From NCBI GenBank assembly GCA_964016885.1, contig OZ024747.1, positions 90,272,001-90,336,000 on the forward strand: DNA of 64,000 nucleotides. The letters run 5' to 3'. The notes below the pieces were generated by a model. It ran no database searches, was not told the origin of the DNA, and saw nothing but the letters and a program-made list of their open reading frames with translations. The translations under genes and the position numbers were made by a program. Shown here piece after piece: positions 4,737-62,206 of the stretch (within the stretch, counting starts at the first letter, position 1; every line of letters starts with the position of its first letter). The DNA comes from Eledone cirrhosa. Its lineage: Eukaryota.

Positions 4737-4779
<43 letters not shown>

Positions 4780-4807
4780 ATAATAATAATAGTAATAATA
4801 AAAATAA

Positions 4808-4936: not shown

Positions 4937-4980
<44 letters not shown>
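4808..4980 (+). mobile_element. R4/Dong-like LINE 3' end with (TAA)n tail
   Basis: KACLLGTARTLRYVLNI*, short UTR, (AAT)n on both sides. Confidence 0.7.
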
Positions 4981-4983
<3 letters not shown>

Positions 4984-5059
4984 TTAAAGACTAAAATCCA
5001 AAGAGGGCTCGATAAGGATAAACATATATCAAATATATAAGAACCGTACAGCAACCGTT

Positions 5060-5110
5060 AGTTTCAGAAGATCCCGTTAAGGGTGAAAGCAGCGATTCTT
5101 TGCTTAAACT
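5060..5110 (+). ncRNA. Hammerhead-like motif, family R3
   Basis: Identical core to 62015-62065. Confidence 0.68.
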
Positions 5111-5125
5111 TTAATCTGTTATTTT

Positions 5126-5169
<44 letters not shown>

Positions 5170-5254
5170 AAAAGGTAAACAGAAATAACAACACAATCGG
5201 TACAGTATATGGAAGGGATATATTACGTTAACGCTTGACATAGCAGGAAGAGGG

Positions 5255-5290
5255 TCTCAACGTTTCGGACACTAGTCCTTCATCAGAAGA
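5255..5290 (-). ncRNA. Minimal (Penelope-type) hammerhead ribozyme
   Basis: Minus strand TCTT-CTGATGA-A-GGAC(TAGT)GTCC-GAAA-CG-TT-GAGA. Decayed mirror copy at 5319-5354 (GAAA>AAAA). Confidence 0.75.
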
Positions 5291-6384
5291 AAGAATATAT
5301 ATATATATATATATTCTTTCTTCTGATGAAGGACTAGCGTCCAAAACATTAAGACCCTCTTCCTGCTATATCAAGCGTTAACGTAATATATATGCGGTGT
5401 TATCCAGTTCTAGGCTCCAAAGCCGTTGGCCTCGCTATGAGATAGGCTTGTTGTGACCATCTGACCTGTCCCTCCTCATAAACGGTGATGATGATGATGA
5501 TGATGATATATACATTTATACATGTTTGCTTGTACAGCATATACATTCAGAAGCAGTCAAGATAATCCTGTTACTGTGGGGTTAGTTTAGAGAAAGTGCT
5601 ATGCCATCAAAATTGCCTTTCTCTGGCTTTAGCTAGAGATAATGGTTATACATATTCATGTGCGTGTCTCTATGTATGCGAGTGTTTGAATTTATGTGAG
5701 TCTATGTATGTATGTGTGTGTGTGCATGTGTGTTTGTGTGAGTGTGTATATGTGTGTTTGTTTTTTTCTAAGTGTCTCTGTGTGTATGTATGTATGTGTG
5801 TGTGTGTGAGTATATGTCTGAAAATGTGTGTGTGTGTGTGTATGTACATGTGTGTGCTTTATGTAAATACGTGTGTGTACGTGTGTGTGTGTGTGTGTGT
5901 GTTTTGTGTAAATATGTGTGTGTATGTGTGTGTGTAAATGTGTGTATCTACATGTGTGTATGTGTGTGTGGACGTGTGTATGTGTGTGTGTGTATGTCTC
6001 AAGTATGTGTGGCTGTATTAATTCTTGAGAATATGTGAATATGTCAGTGCAGGAAAGGTAAGCTTTCTTCGGCATGATGAAGGCAACTTGTCTGCAAGGA
6101 AGGAAACGCCAGAAGGAGGGAGGTCGGGCTGGGGGATGGGGTGGGGGATGAAAAGAAAAGAAAAAAAAACTATTAAAAAAACTTTTAAAAAATAAAACAA
6201 AAGTAACAACCAAAAAAATATAAAAACCAGCAAAAAAAAACCAAAAAACAAAAAAGAAAGGAAAGATAAAAGAAAGGAAAAAAAATGAAAATAAACAAAT
6301 TGTTTGATGTTGTGGAGAGGGAAATTGAGAAAAACAGAAATCAATGGAATAATAGTGAGCTTAATTAACATTGATTATTCCCTT

Positions 6385-20161: not shown

Positions 20162-20359
20162 TATATATATGTATACGTACATACATATATGTATACAGAC
20201 ATACAGTAGTATGTATATATATATACATACATGCACACATATATATATGTACGCATAGGTTTACCAAACATTTATTATAATGTTCGGATTGTTTGTAAAA
20301 AAACAGCCCGAATTAATCCGTACAGTGTTCAGCAACCATCGTTGCTGTTTTGTTCAACA

Positions 20360-20428
20360 CTGACACAGGAACGATGTACTAGTTTCAAGCTTTTTAGCTA
20401 TCGTCAGCATCGTATACCTTCCTGTCAG
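20360..20428 (-). ncRNA. Type I hammerhead ribozyme, family R1 (inverted partner)
   Basis: Minus strand ACGATG-CTGACGA-TAGCT(AAAA)AGCTT-GAAA-CTAG-TA-CATCGT. Confidence 0.87.
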
Positions 20429-20733
20429 CTGATTGAATGTTCGAAAGTATATACTTTCCTTATGCATATTAACAGGTGAGCAGCCTAATTTGCATATCGA
20501 GTGAGTTAGTTGGCCGGGCGTACCGAAAACGATAAATGGAAAAAAATAAAACGAAATTTCATACTTATATTTACGTATCAGCCATACTAAGAGTGAGAAA
20601 TGAAATTTTGTTTCATTTTTTTCCATTTATCGTTTTCGGTACGCCCAACCGACTAACTCACTTGATATGCAAATTAGGCTGCTCAGCCGTTAATATGCAT
20701 AAGGAAAGTATATACTTTCAAATGTTCAATCAT

Positions 20734-20802
20734 CTGACAGGAAGGTATACGATGCTGACGATAGCTAATAAGCTTGAAACTAGTACATCGTTCCTGTGTC
20801 AG
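20734..20802 (+). ncRNA. Type I hammerhead ribozyme, family R1
   Basis: ACGATG-CTGACGA-T.AGCT(AATA)AGCT.T-GAAA-CTAG-TA^-CATCGT. 6-bp stem I extended by CTGACAGGAA/TTCCTGTGTCAG across a GGTAT bulge. GUA cleavage triplet. Confidence 0.88.
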
Positions 20803-21140
20803 TGTTGAACAAAACAGCAACGATGGTAGCTGAACACTGTACGGATTAATTCGGGCTGTTTGTTTACAAACAAACCGAACATTATAATAAATGTTCGGTA
20901 AACCCATGCGTACATATATATATGTGTGCATGTATGTATATATATACATGCTACCGTACGTCTGTATACATATATGTATGTACGTGTACATACTTATATT
21001 TAAGTATCAGCCGTACTAAGAGTGAGAAATGAAATTTCGTTTCATTTTTTTTTCATATATACATATAGATATATATGTATATATGTATGTATACATATAT
21101 ATATATGTATATATGTATATATACACATATATATATACAT

Positions 21141-22436
21141 ATATTGTTATACTTTGGGAGGGTCATGTTGCCAATAAGAAACACACGCACCAGTTGCTTT
21201 CACTTCAATTTAATTTATTAAATATTTATAAATTTACAAATTTATAAATTTATAAATTTCTGGTTGGTTGGTTGGTTCCACAACCAGATAGTTGTTTATA
21301 TATATATAGTCATAGTTCTTTCGTCACACACTCTGTGACCTCTTCAGTGACTGGGGATTTCTTTCTTCGTTTCTGTGCCTTTCCTTTCTTCTATCCTACG
21401 CCATTTTGTTTGTGTGTGGGTTGCGTGCTCAGTTTGCGCATGCGCCACATCCGGGTGTCTGTGTGTGTTTGTGTTCATTTTTCTATTTTTTTATTTATAT
21501 TTTTCTATTTGTTTGTTTATTTATTTATTTATTGTTGGTTGGTTGTTTGTTCTATGTGTGTGTGTGTTTTCATTTTGTCTTGTGTGTGTTTTCATTTTGT
21601 GTGTGTTTTCAATTGTAAGTTGTTTGTTCTATGTGTGTGTGTGTTTTCATTTTGTCCTTAATTGTAAGTTGTGATGTTGCTGTTCCACTCATATTTTCTA
21701 TTTAATTTTGGTTTTAATTCTTTTATGCTTACTGCCTCTGTAATTTGCCTAAACATTGCGTCTTTCTTGTGTGTGGATTCTATTTTTATTTCTATGCTCT
21801 CTAATTTACCCCTGTGTTCTATCTTAGCATGTTGGTAGAGCACAGATGATTCTTTACTATCTTGGAGGTCTCGCCAGTGTTCATTTATTCGTTCCCCTAT
21901 ACTACGAGCTGTCTCACCTATGTACACTATATTTTTGTTTCTACATTGTCCTTCAGTACATCTTATGCTATATACTACATTTCTAGTTTTACAGTTAATA
22001 TGGGGGCTTATTTTACAGGTTATACATTTCTTATCTATACATGAGGGTCTTTGGAACGGGTATGTCTTGCTAATAAGTGTTTTTACGGAGGTACCAGGTC
22101 TTTCTACTATCTTAATATTGAGATTATGTTTCTTTAGGGCCCTTCTAAATTTGTAGGCTAGTTCGCCTCTAGGGGTTGTATTGAGGAACATTACACTCTG
22201 GTATTTATTGCTATCATACCATGAGTTTATTCTATTGGCCTTGTTCTTAGTTCTTTCTATTCTATTCCAAAATTTGCTCCTATACAAGGGGCAGGTCCCA
22301 TTTATGTCATTATTTACCATTTTTTCCCATTTGGTTCTGGCTCCTTTATACACTCTGATTCTATCTCTCTGATTGTAGCCAGAGAACTGCATACGGTGGA
22401 TGAAGTGTTGTATGTGTCTCTCTAGTTCTTCGGGGT

Positions 22437-22440
<4 letters not shown>
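21141..22440 (-). mobile_element. 5'-truncated Penelope-like element (RT thumb, Cys-rich linker, GIY-YIG endonuclease, 3' pLTR with HHR)
   Basis: ORF 21658-22440: ...MQFSGY...RPSCIDKKCITC...NCKTRNVVYSIRC...VYIGETARSIGERINEH...SVLYQH...RQITEAVSI...PKLNRKYEW. Both ends abut (TA)n. Confidence 0.9.
21308..21352 (-). ncRNA. Minimal hammerhead ribozyme in Penelope pLTR
   Basis: Minus strand AGTCA-CTGAAGA-G-GTCACA(GAGTG)TGTGAC-GAAA-G(AA)C-TA-TGACT, about 300 nt downstream of the GIY-YIG stop. Partial copy at 23059-23097 (+). Confidence 0.82.
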
Positions 22441-22484
<44 letters not shown>

Positions 22485-22491
22485 CGTATGT

Positions 22492-22529
<38 letters not shown>

Positions 22530-22542
22530 GTATATATACACA

Positions 22543-23008
22543 TATCACCATCATCATCATCATCACCGTTTTACGTCCGTTCTTGCACGCTAGCATGGGT
22601 TAGACGGGTTGTCCTGTTGTGGGCAGTGTCTGGTCGGCTGACCATGCCTTGCTCATACAGGAACTGATTTGGCTTGATTTCTACAGCTGGATGCCCTTCC
22701 TAACACCAACCTCATTTACAGTGAGTGCTGGGTGCTTTTTCGTGGCGCCTACACGTCCATTTTACAGTGCGGGCTGGGTGCTTTTTTGCCGTGGCACCTC
22801 CACGACCACCTTGCGGTGGGGGGTGTGGGAGCATATTGTCTATATGCTTCAGCTTGTACCCATGGGAGGTCGGGTACTCTGTATTACTGTGTGACGCCAA
22901 AGGTCACGGTCGTGTGTCATTGCCTTTGAGAGGTGTAATTGGGTAAGGTCGGCTTTTATCACCTCATCCCAGGTCATCTTGGGTCTCCCCACTCCGCGGT
23001 TTCCATCA
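22543..23008 (-). mobile_element. RTE 3' fragment (second subfamily) inserted in (TA)n between the Penelope body and its inverted pLTR
   Basis: (ATC)n tail, GGATGCCCTTCCTAACACCAACC UTR motif, ORF tail. Homologous to 30515-30990. Confidence 0.85.
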
Positions 23009-28812: not shown

Positions 28813-30352
28813 TGAAGAATTAATAATGTACCAAACAAATTGTCCCGCACATTTTTGTTGTAGAACAATGTGTGCAGTAGGTTTCTCTTAATTATAATAT
28901 TTAACATTCTTATTACAGATTTTATTTGAAGATATCAAAGGCTAAACTCTGTATCGAAAACATATAAGAAAAACTACCCATTCATTTAAATTTAGAGAAA
29001 AAAAGAAAAGAAAAAAGAAACAAAAAATTAATTAATAGGATAAATATGGCCAACAAGATATAACAACTATTTTGTCAATTTGTCACTTCTTACAGTCAGT
29101 TTCTGACTAGCTTAGAATCTTTGTAAAAGATTAAATATTTACTATAAGAAAATTGAATTAGCTCTTAAACAAGGCTTTAGGCTTCATGAAATACGATAAT
29201 GCTATTAACTAATTCTAAATCTGATGCCAAAAGCTATCTGAAATTGAAAAACATATCATGTGATTCATATATTTGAATTAATTTTTTATATTTATAAAAA
29301 GAAAGAATTCTTTGCATTTAAAACAAGCCTTTAGCAAAAGTTGAAAATTATAGACTCTTCTAGAAAAGTGTTATTAGTATGAAAATAAAAAGGATATCTT
29401 ATCGTCAGATAATAGTATATAACTAAATTTACTCTTTGTCTATAGTCATATTGTTTTGCACTTATCTTCAAACTCTGTAATTATTGTATATTATATCTAG
29501 AATTTCTCAATTAAACAATATAGAAATCTTTCATTGAAACAAATTATTGTCAATTATCTTCTCATGTTGTACCAACAGCTTTGACTTCAGTTTAATTATT
29601 TATTAAATGTTTTGATAGAAAAACATCACTCCACACTAAATTATTTTAAATCATTCTTTTGCAGAAAGCAAAGTGATATATGGTCTAAGTAGCAACATTA
29701 TACAGATTTTTAAATTAATATTTTTCTTTAATTAATATTTTTTAATTACATGATGCGTTTGAGATATATATTCATCATTTTCAGTGTATTCAAGCCACCG
29801 CTGTTTGCTATTTCATATTGTTATTGACTTGTAACTGAAATGTAAATGAAAGCTTTTGTGTTAAACAGAAGACACTTCAAAGATACCTTCTGATATCATA
29901 TATATCTTCCATTGTATTCTTTTAAATACACAACATTTCACAATGTTATAGTAAAGCATAGCTTAGTATATTTTCTGTTTCTTTATTTCTTTCCTATTAA
30001 ACTTTTACTGAACATTACCTTTTAAGTTAAAGTTTCCACACCATGTGTGATATATCTTTCAAAGTTCCAGATTAATTGTACTAACAATAACACTCTCTAT
30101 ATTTCTGATCTAAAATTGATCCATAGACTACAGACAATGGACAATGGGGCATCTCCCTCATAAAGAAGGTTAGAAAATATTCCTAAATAGAAACATGTTT
30201 GGTCACTTGAGTGAAATCAGCAAATATTACTATTTGTATTGCTTTGTTTAACTAACAGTAAGTTACAAATGAATCCTACTCTGTGATAAATTGGCAGGTG
30301 TTTGAAAGACAGCAACCAATCTATCATAAACTTATAGAACAGCTGCCTGAAT

Positions 30353-34380: not shown

Positions 34381-37687
<3,307 letters not shown>

Positions 37688-40600
37688 ACAACCCATCATC
37701 CCTCCCTCCCGCCCCCACGCACCACCATTATTACGTGGACCAATCATAAGTCAGAGGCCCATACTATCGCTTAACTGGTTGCTTTTCGATATGATGGATG
37801 GACTACGGAATTCTGGAGAGTTGAAGAGAGAAAAATGTGGACGCTCAGCGACAATGCCAAAGATAAAGCCAAATTCACCTCGTGGACGAGAATGCAAGCA
37901 CTCCTCCTTGTTTCGGCCCAGGATGGCTAACATAACCCCATCCCCCCCCGCGCCCCACTGCTCCCACCCTCCAAAAGCAATCCAAAACTTCAGAGTTGGT
38001 ACCACGAATGTAGGCACCTTAAAGGGTCGCTCTAACGAGGTTGTAGAAATGCTTGAACGTAAGGAGGTCGATGTTTGTTGTATTCAAGAGACCAGGTGGA
38101 GGGGAGGGTCGGCTAGATTCATCGTGGGTAAAGAGCGATGCTATAAGCTTTTCTGGGTGGGAAATGACAATGGGTTGGGTGGGGTAGGAATCATGGTAGC
38201 AGAAAAGTGGGCAGATAAGATAATAGACGTAAATAGAGTGAACGACAGAATAATTAAAATAAGACTTGTCCTCAATAAAACTACGGTGACAGTAATATCT
38301 GCGTACGCACCCCAATCCGGACTGCCCCGCGCTATAAAAGACAGATTCTACGAGACACTGATGCTCGCTACCTCCCAAATAACCGACAGTGACTATATAG
38401 TTATTGCAGGCGACCTAAATGGTCACGTTGGACAACATTGTGACGGCTATGACGGAATCCATGGAGGCTATGGGTTCGGTACTAGAAATGAGGAAGGCTC
38501 CAGAATCCTGGAATTCTGCGACGCAAATAACTTAACTATCTGTAACACTAACTTCAAAAAACGAGACAATCACTTGATCACCTATAGATCGGGGGAACAC
38601 ACAAGCCAGGTAGATTATATCCTTACCAGAAGACGTGACAGAGTGTCTGTTGTTAACACTAAATCCCACCCCCATGAAGAATTCACCTCCCAACATAGAC
38701 TGATAATTAGCGACCTCATAGTCAGGACGAGACGTACTAGACAGCGGAAGAGGACTATCCTCAGGAGAAAAATATGGAAGCTAAAGGACCCCATAGCCAG
38801 AAATAAATTTCAAAGCAAATTACTTGACGCTTTCGACAGTAAGGAAGAGCAATTAGAGTCGTATAATATAGAGGAACAGTGGGAATTCCTGAGAGCAAAC
38901 CTGCTGACGGCGGCAGACGAAGTCTGTGGCTGGAGCAGGCCTGTAGGTAGGAGGAGAGTAACATGGTGGTGGAACAGTAAGGTGGAGGAGTCAATTAAGG
39001 CCAAAAAGCAGGCTTGGAAAGTATGGCGGGATGGGGGAAGTAGAGAAGACTATCAAGTGGCCAGGAGGGAAGCTAGGAGACAAGTGTACTTCGCAAGAAG
39101 GGAAGCAGAGGAAAGAAAGTTCAAGCATGTTCTACAACGTGAGGACCAAAAACGTGAGGTGTTCAGGATTGCCAGGCAATGTGTCAAGGAAAACCGTGAT
39201 ATTGTCGGGGACAATATCACGGTTTTCCTTAACATCGTTAAGTGTGTACTTAACGATGATGGCATACTTGCCATCACCGACGCTGATAAGAAGGTAGCTT
39301 GGAAGTGTCACTACGAAAGGCTTCTAAATGAGGAGAACAAATGGGAGAAAGACAGTCTCCCCCAGATCGATCCAATAGAGGGACCAGCAGTGTTAGTTGA
39401 AGGTAGTATAATAAGTAAGGCAATCAAAGATATGAAGACGGGTAAGGCGGCTGGGCCTTCGGAAATAGTTGCTGAGATGCTGAAGGCATCTGGTTCGGTG
39501 GGACACACCATGGTCACCCGGATAGTTAACCAAGTCGTACAGAATGGGGTTGTTCCGAAGGAATGGCGTAGCAGCATCATCGTTAACTGCTATAAGGGAA
39601 AAGGAGATGCCCTAGATAGGAGTAACTATAGAGGCATTAAATTAATCGACCAGGTCATGAAGGTCACGGAAAAAGTAATAGCGCAACTAATCAGAGAGAG
39701 AATTGATCTAGATGAAATGCAGTTCGGGTTTGTGTCAGGCAAAAGTACCACAGACGCTCTTTTCATTGTACGACAACTACAGGAGAAGTACCTAGCTAAA
39801 AGTAAACCCCTATACTTAGCTATTGTCGACTTGGAGAAAGCCTTCGACAGAGTCCCCCGTTCCATTATCTGGTGGTCTCTTAGAAAACTAGGTGTTGACG
39901 AATGGCTTGTGAGAGCTATACAAGCCATGTATAAAGAAACAGTCAGTAAGGTTAGAATTAACAACGAATATAGTGAAGAGTTTAGCGTAAAAGTTGGTGT
40001 CCATCAGGGCTCTGTACTTAGCCCCCTACTATTTATTATTGCCCTTCAGGCTATAACAGAGGAGTTCAAGACCGGCTGCCCATGGGAACTCCTATACGCA
40101 GATGATCTAACGCTCATAGCTGAATCAATGACCGAACTAGAGAAGAAATTCCAAACGTGGAAGCACGGCCTAGAATCAAAAGGCCTTAAAATTAACCTGG
40201 CTAAGACTAAAGTTCTAGTTTGTAGGAAAGAAAATAAGGCGGCGGTCCCATCGGGGAAATGGCCATGCTCAGTGTGTAGGAAAGGCGTAGGTAGAAACTC
40301 CATTTTATGTCCCAAATGCAAAGTATGGGTGCATAAAAGATGTAGTGGGATCACAGGTAAGCTAACTAAGAACATAGATTTTACATGTGGCCGGTGCTCT
40401 GGTGCAATAAGTAGCAGCAAGTGCCCACAAAATACTAGCTCTTTCAATTGCGCAGAGGGTTCTATAGAAATAGTGGACAGCTTCCGTTATCTGGGTGACA
40501 AAATCAGCAGTGGGGGAGGGTGCTCTGAAAGTACAGTAGCTAGAGTCAGAACTGGATGGAAAAAGTTCAGAGAGCTTATACCACTATTAGCCGCTAGAGG

Positions 40601-41557
40601 GTTCTCCCTAAAAATGAAAGGCAGGTTATACGATGCCTGCATACGAACAGCAATGCTGCATGGCAGTGAGACCTGGGCATTGTGTGCAGAGGATATACGC
40701 AGACTAGAGAGGAACGAAGCTTGCATGCTCCGCTGGATGTGCAATAGTAATATACGCGAACGGCAAAGCATAAACGAACTAAGGAAAAAATTAGAAATAA
40801 GAGGGATCAGATGTTGTTTACTCGAGAGAAGGCTACGTTGGTACGGTCACGTGATGCGCATGAAAGACGACAGCTGTATAACAAAGTGCAGGGCAATAAA
40901 GATAGACGGTAGCCACGGAGTAGGCAGACCCAGAAAAACATGGGACGAGCTGATAAATTCCGACCTCACACGCTTACACCTCTCCAAGACAATGTCACTG
41001 GACCGAGACCTTTGGCGGTACTCAGTAATAGAGAAGACCCGCCTTACCTAAATACAAAGTAAAAACCTACTACAGTCAGTAGGCACCTCTATCAAAACAC
41101 ACCCCCGTCCCACCACCTCCACCCCACCCACACCGCCCCTTTCAATGTAAAGTTATGTTGGTCCCACAACATCCAGGCCGAAACAAATGAGATCGTGTAG
41201 GTGTCACGACAAAAAACACACAGTCCACGCTGTAAATGTGGCCGTGTAGGCAACACGGTAAAAACCTCCCAGCCCCACACTGTAAATGTGGTTGGTGTTA
41301 GGAAGGGCATCCAGCTGTAGAAAACCCGCCAGACAGTCCACGCTGTAATGTGGCCGTGTAGGCAACACGGTAAAAACCTCCCAGCCCCACACTGTAAATG
41401 TGGTTGGTGTTAGGAAGGGCATCCAACTGTAGAAAACCCGCCAGACAGTCCTATGCGAGCAAGACAACCACTCTTGCCTCAAGTGGGAAAACCCCCGTCC
41501 AAACCCATGCAAGCGTGGAACACGGACGCTAAACCTGATGATGATGATGATGATGAT
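37688..41557 (+). mobile_element. Near-full-length RTE LINE (copy 1) with 3' UTR and (GAT)n tail abutting (TA)n
   Basis: ORF above, about 500 bp 3' UTR ending GGACGCTAAACC(TGA)n. The 5' end is fused to a tandem array. No TSD visible. Confidence 0.92.
37791..41051 (+). CDS. RTE-clade LINE ORF: AP endonuclease + reverse transcriptase with internal PHD-type zinc finger
   Basis: Uninterrupted 1090-aa ORF (first ATG 37791). APE motifs TTNVGTL, CIQETRW, ISAYAPQ, AGDLNGH, SQVDYIL, SQHRLII. RT motifs KAAGPSEI, NYRGIKL, QFGF, DLEKAFDRV, GVHQGSVLSPLLF, LYADDL, FRYLG. RTE-type C-terminus RRLRWYGHVMR...GRPRKTW. Confidence 0.96.
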   Translation: MMDGLRNSGELKREKCGRSATMPKIKPNSPRGRECKHSSLFRPRMANITPSPPAPHCSHPPKAIQNFRVGTTNVGTLKGRSNEVVEMLERKEVDVCCIQETRWRGGSARFIVGKERCYKLFWVGNDNGLGGVGIMVAEKWADKIIDVNRVNDRIIKIRLVLNKTTVTVISAYAPQSGLPRAIKDRFYETLMLATSQITDSDYIVIAGDLNGHVGQHCDGYDGIHGGYGFGTRNEEGSRILEFCDANNLTICNTNFKKRDNHLITYRSGEHTSQVDYILTRRRDRVSVVNTKSHPHEEFTSQHRLIISDLIVRTRRTRQRKRTILRRKIWKLKDPIARNKFQSKLLDAFDSKEEQLESYNIEEQWEFLRANLLTAADEVCGWSRPVGRRRVTWWWNSKVEESIKAKKQAWKVWRDGGSREDYQVARREARRQVYFARREAEERKFKHVLQREDQKREVFRIARQCVKENRDIVGDNITVFLNIVKCVLNDDGILAITDADKKVAWKCHYERLLNEENKWEKDSLPQIDPIEGPAVLVEGSIISKAIKDMKTGKAAGPSEIVAEMLKASGSVGHTMVTRIVNQVVQNGVVPKEWRSSIIVNCYKGKGDALDRSNYRGIKLIDQVMKVTEKVIAQLIRERIDLDEMQFGFVSGKSTTDALFIVRQLQEKYLAKSKPLYLAIVDLEKAFDRVPRSIIWWSLRKLGVDEWLVRAIQAMYKETVSKVRINNEYSEEFSVKVGVHQGSVLSPLLFIIALQAITEEFKTGCPWELLYADDLTLIAESMTELEKKFQTWKHGLESKGLKINLAKTKVLVCRKENKAAVPSGKWPCSVCRKGVGRNSILCPKCKVWVHKRCSGITGKLTKNIDFTCGRCSGAISSSKCPQNTSSFNCAEGSIEIVDSFRYLGDKISSGGGCSESTVARVRTGWKKFRELIPLLAARGFSLKMKGRLYDACIRTAMLHGSETWALCAEDIRRLERNEACMLRWMCNSNIRERQSINELRKKLEIRGIRCCLLERRLRWYGHVMRMKDDSCITKCRAIKIDGSHGVGRPRKTWDELINSDLTRLHLSKTMSLDRDLWRYSVIEKTRLT

Positions 41558-41755: not shown

Positions 41756-44597
41756 ATCATCATCATCATCATCATCAACGTTTAACGTCCGTGTTCCACG
41801 CTTGCATGGGTTTGGACGGGGGTAGTCCCACTTGAGGCAAGAGTGATTGTCTTGCTCGCATAGGACTGTCTGGCAGGTTTTCTACAGTTGGATGCCCTTC
41901 CTAACACCAACCACATTTACAGTGTGGGTCTGGGAGGTTTTTACCGTGTTGCCTACACGGCCACATTACAGCGTGGACTGTGTGTTTTTTTGTCGTGACA
42001 CCTACACGATCTCATTTGTTTCGGCCCGGATGGCGCGGCACCAACATAACTTTACATAGGACGGGGTGGTGTGGATGGGGTGGGGGTGGTGGTGGTGGGA
42101 CGGGGTGTATTTTGTTAGAGATGCCTACTGGCAAGGCGGGTCTTCTCTGTTACTGAGTACCGCCAAAGGTCTCGGTCCAGTGACATTGTCTTGGAGAGGT
42201 GTAAGTGTGTGAGGTCGGAGTTTATCAGCTCGTCCCAGGTTTTTCTAGGTCTGCCTATTCCGTGGCTACCGTCTATCTTTATTGCCCTGCACTTTGTTAT
42301 ACAGCTATCGACTTTCATGCGCATCACGTGTCCATACCAACGTAGCCTTCTCTCGAGTAAACAACATCTGATCCCTCTTATCTCTAATTTTTTCCTTAGT
42401 TCGTTTATGCTTTGCCGTTCACGTATATTACTGTTACACATCCAGCGGAGCATGCAAGCTTCGTTCCTCTCTAGTCTGCGTATATCCTCTGCACACAATG
42501 CCCAGGTCTCACTGCCATGCAACATTGCTGTTCGTATGCAGGCATCGTACAACCTGCCTTTCATTTTTAGGGAGAACCCTTTAGCAGCTAATAGTGGTAT
42601 AAGCTCTCTGAACTTTTTCCAACCAGTTCTGACTCTAGCTACAGTACTTTCAGAGCACCCTCCCCCACTGCTGATTTTATCGCCCAGGTAACGGAAGCTG
42701 TCCACTATTTCTATAGAACCCTCTGCGCAATTGAAAGAGCTAGTATTGTGTGGGCACTTGCTGCTACTTATTGCACCAGAACACCGGCCACATGTAAAAT
42801 CTATGTTCTTAGTTAGCTTACCTGTGATCCCACTACATCTTTTATGCACCCATACTTTGCATTTAGGACACAAAATGGAGTTTCTACCTACGCCTTTCCT
42901 ACACACCGAGCACGACCATTTCCCAGAAGGGACCGCCGCCTTGTTTTCTTTCCTACAAACTAGAACTTTGGTCTTAGCCAGGTTAATTTTAAGTCCTTTT
43001 GACTCTAGGCCGTGCTTCCATGTTTGGAATTTCTTCTCTAGCTCGGCCATTGATTCCGCTATGAGTGTCAGGTCGTCTGCGTATAGGAGTTCCCATGGGC
43101 AGCCTGTCTTGAACTCCTCTGTTATAGCCTGAAGGGCAATAATAAATAGTAGGGGGCTGAGAACAGAGCCCTGATGGACGCCAACTTTTACGCTAAACTC
43201 TTCACTATATTCGTTGTTAATTCTAACCTTGCTGACTGTTTCTTTATACATGGCTTGTATAGCCCTCACAAGCCATTCGTCAACGCCTAGTTTTCTAAGA
43301 GCCCACCAGATAATGGAGCGGGGGACTCTGTCGAAGGCTTTCTCCAAGTCGACAAAAGCTAAGTAGAGGGGTTTACCTTTAGCTAGGTACTTCTCCTGTA
43401 GTTGTCGTACTATGAAAAGAGCGTCTGTGGTACTTTTGCCTGACACAAACCCGAACTGCATTTCATCTAGGTCAATTCTCTCTCTGATTAGTTGCGCTAT
43501 TACTTTTTCTGTGACCTTCATGACCTGGTCGATTAATTTAATGCCTCTATAGTTACTCCTATCTAGGGCGTCTCCTTTACCCTTATAACAGTTAACGATG
43601 ATGCTGCTATGCCAGTCCTTCGGAACAACCCCATTCTGTACGACTTGGTTAACTATGCGGGTGACCATGGTGTGTCCCACCGTGCCAGATGCCTTCAGCA
43701 TCTCAGCAACTATTTCCGAAGGCCCAGCCGCCTTACCTGTCTTCATATCCTTGATTGCCTTACTTATTATACTCCCCTCGACTAACACTGCTGGTCCCTC
43801 TATTGGGTCGACATGGGGGAGACTGTCTTTCTCCCATTTATTCTCCTCATTTAGTAGCCTTTCATAGTGACACTTCCAAGCTGCCTTCTTATCAGTGTCG
43901 GTGATGGCAAGTATGCCATCATCGTTAAGTACACACTTCTCCCCGACAATATCACGGTTTTCCTTGACGCATTGCCTAGCAATCCTGAACACCTCACGTT
44001 TTTGGTCATCGCGTTGTAGGACATGCTTGAACTTTCTTTCCTCAGCTTCCCTTCTTGCTAAGTACACTTCTCTCCTAGCTTCCCTCCTGGCCACTTGATA
44101 GTCTACTCTACTTCCCCCATCCCGCCATACTTTCCAAGCCTGCTTTTTGGCCTTAATTGACTCCTCCACCTTACTGTTCCACCACCATGTTACTCTCCTC
44201 CTGCCTACAGGCCTGCTCCAGCCACAGACTTCGTCTGTGGCCAACAGCAGGTTTGCTTTCAGAAATTCCCACTGTCCCTCTATATTGTCCGACTCTAAGT
44301 GTTCTTCCTTACTGTCGAAAGCATCAAGTAATATGTTTTGAAATTTATTTTTGGCTGTGGGGTCCTTTAGCTTCCATATTTTTCTCCTGAGGATAGTCCT
44401 CTTCTGCTGTCGAGTACGTCTCGACCTGACTATGAGGTCGCTAATTATCAGTCTATGTTGGGAGGTGCATTCTTCATGGGGGAGGGATTTAGTGTTTACA
44501 ACAGACACTCTGTCACGTCTTCTGGTAAGGATATAATCTACCTGGCTTGTGTGTTCCCCGGATCTATAGGTGATCAGGTGATTGTCACGTTTTTTTT

Positions 44598-44603
<6 letters not shown>
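41756..44603 (-). mobile_element. RTE LINE copy 2, 5'-truncated, inserted in (TA)n
   Basis: (ATC)n tail at 41756, 3' UTR homologous to copy 1, (TA)n on both sides. Confidence 0.93.
42115..44590 (-). CDS. 5'-truncated RTE LINE ORF (end of APE, RT, PHD finger)
   Basis: 797-aa ORF nearly identical to copy 1. The frame extends upstream to RDNHLITYRSGEHTSQVDYIL. Truncated at the element's own A-tract (poly-T 44590-44603). Confidence 0.94.
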
Positions 44604-45868: not shown

Positions 45869-46042
45869 TAAATCATGTCCCTAGAATTATTAGATAAAAT
45901 ATATACAATTTCCTCTCCCATATTATTACTATATATATATATATATATATAGTAATAATAATAAAGATGAAGGTTAAAATCCGAAGAGGGCTCGATAAGG
46001 ATGATATATATATATAAATATATAAAAACCATAGAGCAAATA

Positions 46043-46090
46043 TTCAGAAGATCCCTTTAAGGTTGAAAGCAGCGATTCTTTGCTTAAACT
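46043..46090 (+). ncRNA. Decayed hammerhead-like motif, family R3
   Basis: CAGAAGA-TCCCTTTAAGGTT-GAAA-GCAGCGATTCTTTGC-TT-AAACT. Stem I 5' arm truncated. Confidence 0.5.
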
Positions 46091-48088
46091 TTAATCTGTT
46101 ATTTTAATTTATATATATATATAGAGAGAGAGAGAGGGAGAGAGAGTTTACAGTGCTGAGACCGGGTAGACCACTAATCATAGGAGTACTCAATGCATAG
46201 GAGATACAGAGTAGGTATATGAGATGTAAAATCCTGTGATTTTACATCTCTCTTTCTCTCTCTCTCCTTCTTTCTCTCTCTGTCCCTCTCTCTTTCTCTC
46301 TCACTCTATAAATATATATATTGATTGATTGGAACCACTGTCCTCATAGACAGGCTGGGGATTGCATCTCACCTGGATTCACTCCAGCACTCTACAGAGT
46401 CCACCAGGTGTATTTTAATATGACAGAAGCAGTAGGGAGATTGTAATGTCTCTGTCACAACTGAAGAGTCAAAGATTGTTGTAGATATAATCCATCCTTG
46501 ATATTCTTATCAATGTCAGATTAAAAAGTGATGATCTGGTTAGTTGAAAGGACCCGGTTCCAGTGCAATTTCTTTGAAAATCTTTATAGTGAAGAACCAT
46601 GCAAGATGCTGCCACCACCACCACCACCATCATCAGCAACTTCATCATCATCACCATCATTATCATCACCGTTTAACGTCCATTTTCCATGTTAGCATGG
46701 GTTAGACAGATTGTCCCATTAGAGACAAGTTGGGTCAGGTGACTGTATCTTGCTCATATAAAACTGTTTCTGGCTAAGTTTCTATGCCTGGATGCCCTAT
46801 GGCAGGATGTCCTAATGCCAACCACATTTACAGAGAAATTAGTTAAACCAAGCTCATCACATCTATTAAAATAATAAAATTAACAATACTAAAAATTTAA
46901 TGTTAACATTTTTCATCATTGTATGCTACTGTAAAATACTAACATTAAAAATTTGAAGATCCATCCAACCTATGCTTGTATAAAAGCATCTACTTGATAT
47001 GGAAGACGAAATAAGGAAATGGCAAACCAAATGTGATGTGACAACTGAGTAAATTTATCTTTTATATCTAAGTAAGAAACTCTAAGGTAAACACAACAAA
47101 GATTGCTAAGCTAGCGGCAGTAACATCTAGAACAATCAATGATATCTGTGAAAGAAAGAATAAAGATGAAACAAAGCAATGTCTGAGAGTTTTAAATGCT
47201 AACAAAATAAAACAAAATTCAGAAGAATAAATTTAAGGTGTTTTCATTTATCCTTACTCTTTTCTCTATCTTTTAGGCTGTTGTTTACAATCTTATTCTA
47301 GTGTATTTTTATTCAACCTATTTTCTATGCATCAGAACAACATAAGTAATAAGGATTGGAAGAAAGCTCTTTGAATTTCTTCTACTCATTACATTCCTTA
47401 TCTATTGTACTTTTGCTGCTTCATCTACCTTTGTTGTTTACTTCACTAAAGAATATTTCCATTACTGACAACAGTCTCTTCATCAAAAGCCAGTATTTCC
47501 CTTGCTAATCTATTTAGGGAACTAAACTGGCTTGTGAATTTCTTTCATATGATATTTGCATTGTCTGACAGCTCGTTGTATATTCAAGTGCATTTTTGAT
47601 GCAGTTGATGCTGAGAATTGAGTACTTACATATATATTCTCCCCTAAACAAAGACACTGCTACTTCATAAGATATTCTAAGGTCATATATCAATCATTTA
47701 TATCTTATTTCTCTTTTATAAGGTTTTGAAATTTTACTTTTCTTTCTTTGAAAATGATAATATTTTGATATAGTTACATTACATAAATATAATGGTTTCT
47801 GGTCTAGGCAGAAGGCCAATAATTTAGCCAGAGGGAAAGTTGATTAAATCGACCCCATAAGGATGATAGGCAAAGCTAATCCCAGCAGGATTTGAACTCA
47901 TAATGTAAAGGGATATAACTATATGCCACAAAGCATGTTGTCCAATGCTGTACCGTTACTGCCAATCCACTGTCCTTTTGTTATATAACAATAATAACCA
48001 CTACACAAAAACATACACATATATCTATAATAATTGTATGGAAAGTCTCAGATTCACTTTTGCTGGTTTATTATATCTTAAACGATAT

Positions 48089-59900: not shown

Positions 59901-60048
59901 AGGATTAGAATACTGGAGCGTGTTTGAGTCAAACACCCTCTTCGTATTATAGAAATGTCAGTAAAAGGTATAGCTCAATGCAGTTAAACAGAGCTGAAAA
60001 ATTAAGAGAGTAAAACAAAGAATCCTTTAATACATCAAAAGTTTTTAT

Positions 60049-60090
60049 TAGCCGACAATGTTTCGTCCTATTAAGGACTCATCAGGGCAA
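60049..60090 (-). ncRNA. Minimal hammerhead ribozyme
   Basis: Minus strand GCC-CTGATGA-GTCC(TTAATA)GGAC-GAAA-C(ATT)G-TC-GGC. Fully canonical core, GUC triplet. Confidence 0.8.
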
Positions 60091-61168
60091 TCAAAACAAC
60101 AAGAGGTAATTTCGGCAGATACAAGCCAGAAACTCTGGAGAATATGGAGTTTACATACACTAATGTCTTACAAAGATATACGATAATAAAAATGAAGATA
60201 AAAATAATAAAATTATAATAACTAAGGATGTAGATAACATTAAGAACCATATTACAAATATAGTCCAAAGTCACCAACTTGAATTTAAACAAATTTGGTT
60301 ATATAGAGCAGGAATTATATATAACACAGTATAATACATTATAATAATAATATATCTATACCAACATTAAAATTCCAAATTAAAAATCAAAAGGTACAAT
60401 ATATACATGTATATATGTGCGCACACACACACACACATATTACAATACACATATCTATTTTCTATTACACAGAAATTAAGCCCTATTGGAAGTTTGAACA
60501 TCAAAAATATCAAAAATAAGCATGGTAATAGTGAAAATAATGCTAATACATCTACCCAATATACATGAGGCAATAATTACAAGAAACACTTATAATAAAT
60601 AATAAACAACAAAATTATATAATACAATACAATATAATAAAGTAGAATATATATAATCTCCGGTTAATTTACAGAAACAATATAGATGTCACAGTGAAAT
60701 ACAATGATAAATTGTTAACATTATATTAACAATTACCATAAACAATATGTACAACATGATTCATACTGGGTTACATAATAAATGGGGAAATATCAATCAT
60801 ATAATATAATACAATAATACTCAAAAAAACTATATTGGTACAGGGAACAATTATGATGTTACAGAAAAAATATGTTGTTACAGAAAAAATATAGACATCT
60901 AACATGATATGTAAAGTCTAAATACCATAATGTTACATATTACAATATTAAAATATTAAAATATTAAAAAAATATAAAGTTTAACTATCTTAATGTTATA
61001 TATAATAAACGGTAAGTAATAAGGATCTATATCATAATGTAATATATTTTAAAAATTGACATATAATATATAAATAAATACTTATAATTTCAAGGTTATA
61101 TATATATATATATATAAAGAGAGAGAGAGAGAGAGGAGGAGGAGAAAGAGAGACAGAGAGGGGAGGAG

Positions 61169-61658: not shown

Positions 61659-61689
<31 letters not shown>

Positions 61690-61697
61690 TAAAATAA

Positions 61698-61771
61698 CAG
61701 ATTAAAGTTTAAGCAAAGAATCGCTGCTTTCACCCTTAACGGGATCTTCTGAAACTAACAAAGTCAATCTG
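61698..61771 (-). ncRNA. Hammerhead-like motif with A4 core variant, family R3 (inverted partner)
   Basis: Reverse complement of 62000-62073. Confidence 0.7.
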
Positions 61772-61999
61772 TAAACGCCTCAGTTGAGCACTCTATTGAC
61801 TTATATTCATCATGCAGAAACAACATCTGAATATTTCTACAAAGAACTACCCGTACCTAGCAGGAAAACATACCTAAAACTCCTGATACAGATTCGTTTT
61901 TTCCCGTTCTTTGCCAGGGAACGTTTCCACGAACCAAAGTATCGTCTTCCTGTCTTCCTCCGGTTACAACGTTTTTTGAAATATCCACTTCGGCGTTTA

Positions 62000-62073
62000 C
62001 AGATTGACTTTGTTAGTTTCAGAAGATCCCGTTAAGGGTGAAAGCAGCGATTCTTTGCTTAAACTTTAATCTG
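62000..62073 (+). ncRNA. Hammerhead-like motif with A4 core variant, family R3
   Basis: AGTTT-CAGAAGA-T.CCC(GTTAA)GGG.T-GAAA-GCA(GCGATTCTT)TGC-TT-AAACT. Stem I extended by CAGATTGA/TTAATCTG. Confidence 0.7.
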
Positions 62074-62172
62074 TTATTTTAATAAATATTTGCTCTACGG
62101 TTCTTATATATTTGATATATATTTATCCTTATCGAGCCCTCTTTGGATTTTAGTCTTCAAATTTATTATTAT

Positions 62173-62206
<34 letters not shown>

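Follow-up and report, generated by a model that had tools for sequence, protein, structure and literature searches.

The window, the whole 64,000-nucleotide stretch analysed here, is microsatellite-rich animal DNA with open reading frames (ORFs) of RTE-type LINEs and fragments of Penelope-like elements (PLEs). Two near-identical LINE ORFs lie in opposite orientation at 37689-41051 (plus strand) and 42115-44601 (minus strand); the former spans 1120 aa from stop to stop, with endonuclease, reverse transcriptase (RT) and PHD-finger matches, and immediately upstream of it, at 36065-37774, are repeated blocks of several hundred bases with a strong C skew. A GIY-YIG PLE fragment (about 21658-22599, minus strand), 60% identical to an Octopus vulgaris protein and unrecognised by Pfam, is flanked by a pair of hammerheads at 21347 (minus) and 23059 (plus). 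The 60% identity, which holds over 21658-22440, makes an octopod host likely. Lunse and colleagues reportedly described hammerheads in the pseudo-LTRs (pLTRs) of PLEs in 2017. Further canonical PLE-type hammerheads were seen at 5234-5375, 60047-60091 (minus), 61511 (plus) and 63815 (plus), and at least 10 motifs in the 64 kb carry the consensus U at core position 4 (U4). Those at 20250-20910, 44827 (minus) and 62370 (minus) have a U10.1·U11.1 mismatch and a bulge in stem I, and their stem III loops (CUAG, UGCG) are palindromic.

Among these motifs lies a family, R3, whose core reads CAGAAGA instead of CUGANGA in all four copies, as the initial annotation had reported, with starts at 5065 (plus), 46045 (plus), 61751 (minus) and 62020 (plus). 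Compared with the 62020 copy over the 66 nucleotides from the core onward, two of the other copies are identical and the third has 2 differences. The four cores belong to only three insertions, however, because the 61751 and 62020 copies form the two arms of a single insertion; both have a G at 61992 that is lacking in 99.9% of the sequencing depth of the family. In the 62020 copy, an inner stem I of 5 bp (AGTTT at 62015-62019 with AAACT at 62061-62065) leads into C3-A4-G5-A6-A7-G8-A9 at 62020-62026, with C3-G8 intact and A4 at 62021. The U10.1·U11.1 mismatch follows, then a 3-bp stem II (CCC/GGG) closed by a 5-nt loop. G12 to A15.1 occupy 62040-62043, with G12-A13-A14 present (GAAA) and the A15.1-U16.1 pair formed with 62059, and stem III has five pairs, four Watson-Crick and one G·U. 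The cleavage triplet is CUU, as first described, with U17 at 62060 and a predicted cut between 62060 and 62061; CUU is tolerated under the NUH rule. The extension of stem I had been given as 8 bp and is in fact 9 bp (61999-62007 with 62066-62074), lying beyond a 7-nt bulge. This bulge and the 5-nt loop are suitably placed for a putative contact between stem I and loop II, and two of the bulge bases vary (12% and 24% of depth).

R3 thus has three helices of 5, 3 and 5 bp plus the 9-bp extension around the core, with stem I open as in a type I hammerhead, and departs from C3-U4-G5-A6-N7-G8-A9 at position 4 only, the other six bases being canonical. A relaxed descriptor recovers three of the four copies (5065, 61751 and 62020) as complete type I folds, the 46045 copy failing because the 5′ strand of its stem I is lost. 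The full fold survives in two of the three insertions. The 5065 and 46045 copies are both partly damaged: the former lacks the 5′ strand of the stem I extension, and the latter nearly all of the stem I 5′ strand as well as one stem II pair. The fold is not a product of chance, and none of 30 first-order Markov resamplings of the window, searched on both strands, contained a comparable non-U4 fold (stems of at least 5/3/4 bp). Within the R3 element there is no other CUGANGA register and no antisense hammerhead. Across the window, a wider descriptor found 14 motifs, namely the 3 R3 folds, 10 with CUGANGA and one with UAGAAAA; the last, at 30171, is a weak match that we took for chance.

Standard tools do miss R3, as had been predicted. 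Rfam gave no hammerhead match on 61985-62090 at E ≤ 10, and over the whole window it placed a single hammerhead (60047-60091) among the best 150 of 173 matches, the rest being mostly microsatellite noise. A U4 sister received only a weak HH9 match below the gathering threshold (E = 0.017), and so the Rfam test has little power. Folding energies were likewise rejected as evidence, since they do not tell A4 from U4. The hammerhead of the 62020 copy is not its minimum-energy fold (z = -0.16), nor do the window's U4 hammerheads score any better. The hammerhead takes a computed share of 1.05% with A4 and 1.2% with U4, and seven of the window's U4 motifs give fractions from 1.6e-7 to 3e-3; with equal shares for A4 and U4, misfolding adds no argument against activity. 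In the minimum-energy fold of the genomic sequence, A4 pairs with U11.1 and sequesters G12 to A15.1. As the U10.1·U11.1 mismatch is common to several U4 families, it is ordinary in this window.

The insertion at 61.7 kb displays the anatomy of the element most fully. It begins with an inverted, 5′-truncated arm on the minus strand (61682-61779), a perfect reverse complement of 61992-62089 that includes a full hammerhead fold (61697-61772, C3 at 61751). There follows on the plus strand a separate piece (61780-61891) at about 1% of the ribozyme depth, to which single-contig joints lead from 62168 back to 61811/61812. This piece probably represents the 5′ untranslated region and the opening codons of the parental ORF (ATG at 61812, MQKQHLNISTKN), with the frame broken in this copy. 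The main repeat body 5′ of the ribozyme (61892-61998, plus), delimited by a depth step at 61892-61894 and by loose contig ends, is a probable 3′ untranslated region or pLTR. By eye, L/F-H-R-S-K/Y and then stop codons can be read in contigs extending upstream of 61892, an ending that may resemble the C terminus of a PLE endonuclease. The type I hammerhead fold occupies 61999-62074 (plus), from the 9-bp outer stem I to the CUU site with its predicted cut. The next stretch (62075-62089, plus) closes at an internal end point, 62089, where the inverted arm meets (TA)n in all three insertions and after which 143 contigs of sequencing run X1 exit the element into (TA)n; 62089 is likely an internal start of reverse transcription. 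The 86-nt tail (62090-62175, plus), which ends in ATT repeats and then (TA)n, is present at one end only in all three insertions, and its end, at about 62175, is likely a second such start.

The other two insertions follow the same plan, which, read towards the tail, runs from (TA)n through an inverted arm (beginning at the 62089 equivalent) and a junction to a sense part that closes with the 86-nt tail, and on to ATT repeats and (TA)n. The second (4966-5135) consists of a reverse-complement tail (4966-5054) that stops at the equivalent of 62090 and a plus-strand hammerhead arm (5057-5135) that begins at the equivalent of 62012, with C3 at 5065. The third (45942-46114) joins a reverse-complement tail (45942-46044), stopping at the equivalent of 62085, to a truncated hammerhead arm (46043-46114) with C3 at 46045, in which the loss of the stem I 5′ strand and the damage to stem II make the full fold impossible. 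In both, the sense part is the tail alone, whereas at 61.7 kb it runs through the ribozyme to 61892. All six insertion ends are flanked by (TA)n or (TAA)n, and the arrangement of the 46045 copy recurs in X1 in opposite-strand contig joints, 62022/62023 to 62099 among them. The end of the R3 tail (ATT repeats and AC beside (TA)n) also has a reverse-complement match at 4767-4789, 200 bp to the left of the 5065 insertion, and a similar match at 45921-45939 faces the 46045 insertion.

Inverted truncated copies, a one-sided tail and AT-rich targets are features of PLEs (Craig et al. 2021, PMC8557442; this and the other papers so marked are cited in part), and R3 shows an inverted 5′-truncated copy beside the pLTR and a one-sided tail in all three insertions, in microsatellite or AT-rich targets. 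The tail of PLEs has been explained as the span between two internal reverse-transcription starts (PMC11167929, in part); tails reported in the covered literature are usually 30-40 bp, against 86 nt in R3. Translations of R3 gave no significant match to the PLE proteins collected or to those of the window (best E = 0.17) and no RT or GIY-YIG domain is linked to it, so its PLE membership rests on anatomy. R3 is a young, very high-copy repeat that likely forms the 3′ pLTR of a Penelope-like retrotransposon. Its parent probably had the layout pLTR-ORF-pLTR, with the probable ORF start at about 1% of the ribozyme depth. We consider it very improbable that R3 is instead a stand-alone small element, be it a non-LTR retrozyme, SINE-like or palindromic and MITE-like. 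Its copies are indeed mostly short and non-coding, 61682-62089 has 98-bp inverted arms, and there is the lack of a protein match. Yet the three window insertions, solo or inverted, show no tandem array of hammerhead-bearing (type I) units in head-to-tail order, and only single-contig joints in X1 lead back; the arms differ in length between insertions, the tail is one-sided, and some contigs extend beyond 61892 on the upstream side or from the tail end to 61811/61812. The same arrangement with an inverted arm is found in the U4 sister family at 20250-20910 (the 20.4/20.75-kb pair), which serves as a natural control, and animal retrozymes have themselves been proposed as derivatives of PLE pLTRs (bioRxiv 10.64898/2026.07.22.740005, in part).

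The frequency of A4 among genomic copies had been put forward as a check on R3, and sequencing runs bear it out. Among the runs listed, 20 of 24, from 16 studies, contain part of the stretch, with no RNA run among the matching ones; four runs were aligned to R3. In X1, which may be the window's own sample, at least 80% likeness to 61790-62168 is found in 18,512 contigs (6,089 at 99% and above, 7,137 at 95-99%, 4,273 at 90-95% and 1,013 lower), counts of contigs rather than reads, weighted by depth, to which relatives less than 80% alike are invisible. No core base, 62021 included, is found among the best 40 of 43 variant rows at a 2% threshold (34 of 37 places). By the tally of X1, an A>T, a C>T and a G>A make up the three further rows; these would fall in the thinly covered stretch near 61848 (where the A at 61849 fits) if the rows are ranked by depth, and would stand at 2.0-2.2% if they are ranked by share. 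U4 is thus absent or at about 2% of depth at most, and A4 makes up about 98% or more. Unphased variants at 12-19% of depth occur at 61925-61927, 61954, 61960, 61985, 61998 and 62008, which suggests a subfamily differing at 7-9 upstream sites. Because its share exceeds the ceiling of about 2% for U4, this subfamily must also carry A4. These shares show A4, at the level of sequence, to be older than the split of at least two subfamilies, and the original proposal that the source elements already had it, so that it did not arise by decay after insertion, is upheld by its presence in three insertions, throughout the family and in the 12-19% subfamily.

Given that CpG decay amounts to about 3-7% per site, the family is young. 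A rough bracket for its copy number is 5,000 to 250,000, with 3 insertions in the 64 kb of the window, the depth of X1 not being readable as copy number. Runs X10 and X20 gave 12 contigs and 1 contig, all with A4 where covered, mostly of read length and at depth 2-8, so that foreign DNA could explain them. In the raw reads of organism E a single partial read was found in 1,938 million letters, and hence that sample lacks the R3 family; another run under the same label holds 48% of the words. Pattern scans for relatives of R3 returned none from metagenomes, viral contigs or GTDB genomes. The sole match of a looser metagenome scan, on contig L001, was rejected as chance, having neither the 5′ part of the core nor stem II; L001 carries at 1060-1720 canonical minimal PLE-type hammerheads in an inverted arrangement and is probably DNA of a host animal. 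We give next to no credence to post-insertion decay, sequencing error or chance resemblance as the origin of A4. That the hammerhead is not the minimum-energy fold and goes unrecognised by Rfam would suit such an origin, but three independent insertions have A4, which also makes up about 98% or more of depth (barring the case that the further A>T row is 62021 at a high share), chance folds were absent from 30 resampled windows, and the position is the correct one for a PLE-type repeat.

Our preferred reading, to which we assign a probability of roughly 0.57, is that R3 carries a strongly attenuated ribozyme on a successful PLE family and that cleavage is predicted to be functionally negligible. 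Fixation in the family demonstrates only that the source copies were mobile, not that the ribozyme is active. U4 contacts the phosphate backbone between A6 and N7 (PMC3088659), and a purine in the CUGA uridine turn would cripple catalysis, judging from published mutagenesis. In a complete scan of single and double mutants, CUGA-turn mutants had low activity except for the C3G/G8C swap (PMC9901934, in part); the scan concerns a different, type III ribozyme, and its text and supplement, in the parts covered, give no value for U4A. All three insertions keep the sequence 3′ of the predicted cut, and the family depth in X1 has no step there (2.96e6 at 62050-62062, 2.74e6 at 62063-62075, 2.11e6 at 62076-62088 and 1.6-1.8e6 in the tail), so the copies were likely reverse-transcribed from uncut RNA. 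Priming of such RNA would begin at 62089 and at about 62175, both internal and 3′ of the ribozyme, with the two nicked strands of a (TA)n target as primers. The inverted arm and one-sided tail would both follow from this, and the tail copy of two of the three insertions stops at 62085-62090, in agreement with twin priming. A cut at 62060 would part both priming points from the body of the template, and for that reason the loss of cleavage might cost the element little or even help it. The fold and tail may then be kept mainly as a loading and initiation site for the PLE protein. Ribozyme-dead mutants of an anole PLE insert normally, cleavage not being required in vitro, and no RNA-seq reads end at its cut site (PMC11167929, in part); Naiads without hammerheads outnumber those with them (PMC8557442, in part). 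The U4 families are also copied from uncut RNA, so this mode of copying does not single out A4.

The pattern of variation bears on whether the ribozyme is still selected. In stems II and III, three pair-breaking variants outside CpG reach 4.5%, 2.2% and 4.0% of depth, and two other non-CpG stem variants, 62047 G>A and 62064 C>T, keep or improve pairing. The other core positions have no variant of 2% or more among the best 40 of 43 rows, a weak signal (P = 0.17 under random placement). Subfamily variants above 10% occur at none of the 60 nucleotides of 62015-62074 and at 9 of 123 upstream (p = 0.03, or 0.10 if the triplet is one event, with boundaries set post hoc). This region therefore looks constrained, though the tail, with 1 of 94 positions above 10%, is as quiet. 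R3 appears to work like a PLE pLTR, and continued function of its ribozyme is doubtful.

Two alternatives would keep the ribozyme at work. A4 might lower the cleavage rate enough for most RNA to persist as template; the PLE protein or the bulge-loop II contact would still allow some molecules to cut, and so free the element from read-through transcripts. We regard this slow but used ribozyme as possible, if rather unlikely: the other core bases, C3-G8, the three stems and the bulged stem I are all kept, none of the major subfamily variants falls in the junction, metazoan PLE hammerheads cleave slowly in vitro (PMC4209133, in part) and that of the anole cuts only with its protein (PMC11167929, in part); the stable stem III would permit monomeric cutting and could favour a brake elsewhere. 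It has to contend with the low activity of turn mutants without second-site rescue (PMC9901934, in part), with the pair-breaking variants at 2-4.5% in stems II and III, and with a tail that has no catalytic role and is equally constrained. A near-normal rate is a still weaker candidate, one we judge quite unlikely, in which A4 together with A7, U10.1·U11.1, the long stem III and the 7-nt bulge would rebuild the turn. Fixation across subfamilies with the rest of the core perfect speaks for it, as does the activity of other natural core variants through peripheral contacts (PMC3088659). However, the complete pairwise scan found no second mutation that rescues turn mutants (PMC9901934, in part), U4 is present in all 56 PLE-type family representatives of PMC4209133 (in part), albeit with a descriptor that required it, and in 10 of the 11 other descriptor matches of the window, and efficient cleavage in the 3′ pLTR would cost the element its priming sites. 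That a purine in the uridine turn, which is regarded as precluding cleavage, is rescued by the bulge-loop contact, the long stem III or the element's own protein, is active and has been selected as a protein-gated switch in 10^4 to 10^5 copies is likewise an unlikely proposition. Between the attenuated ribozyme and the working natural variant, the two options that the initial annotation had left side by side, the evidence leans towards attenuation.

Judged by sequence, R3 has a hammerhead fold of the PLE type, itself known, in which a single core base departs from the consensus throughout the family. Like the PLE hammerheads of Cervera and de la Pena (2014, PMC4209133, in part), it is of type I topology and lies in a pLTR-like repeat; in both, pairs on opposite strands are 100-700 bp apart, most copies are solo and truncated, and the consensus families are large. 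It differs from them in its uncompensated A4 (U in 56 of 56, Fig. S3), in a stable, non-palindromic stem III where theirs is a minimal dimer-type helix, and in U10.1·U11.1 where theirs have an extra base and G10.1-C11.1. The green anole element Poseidon (Frangieh et al. 2024, PMC11167929, in part) similarly has two end points 3′ of the ribozyme that define its tail, AT-rich or ATT targets and copies from uncut RNA, whereas its core is canonical and cuts with protein help, and the R3 tail is 86 nt. Naiad PLEs without canonical hammerheads share (TA)n targets, inverted truncated copies and very high copy number with R3, which, unlike them, retains a complete fold one base from canonical; cephalopod Naiads have been described as old remnants (PMC8557442, in part). 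Natural core variants (U4C, CYGANGA, U3-A8, A6C, U15.1-A16.1 and U10.1·U11.1) likewise have one change in an otherwise full core. Natural U4C is active enough in a viroid in vivo (Ambros and Flores 1998, via PMC3088659), CYGANGA has been reported from deep-sea RNA viromes (PMC13481778, in part), tolerance of the U10.1·U11.1 mismatch is already published (PMC3088659), and U3-A8, with about 1,300 matches in Schistosoma, is a precedent for a family-wide core variant (PMC4209133, in part). R3 is set apart from these variants by a purine at position 4 and by its fixation across thousands of genomic copies instead of in single genomes. Full-text literature searches, with partial coverage of PLE core variants and alignments, found no natural U4A hammerhead, and the term CAGA is absent from the covered text of PMC11014351 and PMC13481778.

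The function of hammerheads in PLEs has been called still unclear, and they may only parasitize the elements (PMC8557442, in part). R3 offers a natural experiment on this point: its thousands of copies, one base off canonical in the core, share their genome with U4 sister families. Should the ribozyme be dead, R3 would provide in vivo evidence that an element can lose cleavage and yet amplify strongly, in agreement with the in vitro result from the anole. If R3 cuts, it would contradict the mutational maps of the CUGA turn, and CUGANGA descriptors would be missing abundant animal ribozymes; an active U4A would widen the core consensus to CNGANGA and point to a hidden class of animal ribozymes absent from descriptor searches.

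A transcript spanning 61682-62089 would form a perfect 98-bp hairpin that buries both hammerheads, and it would likely be a substrate for A-to-I editing or small-RNA production. A-to-I editing is unable to restore U4.
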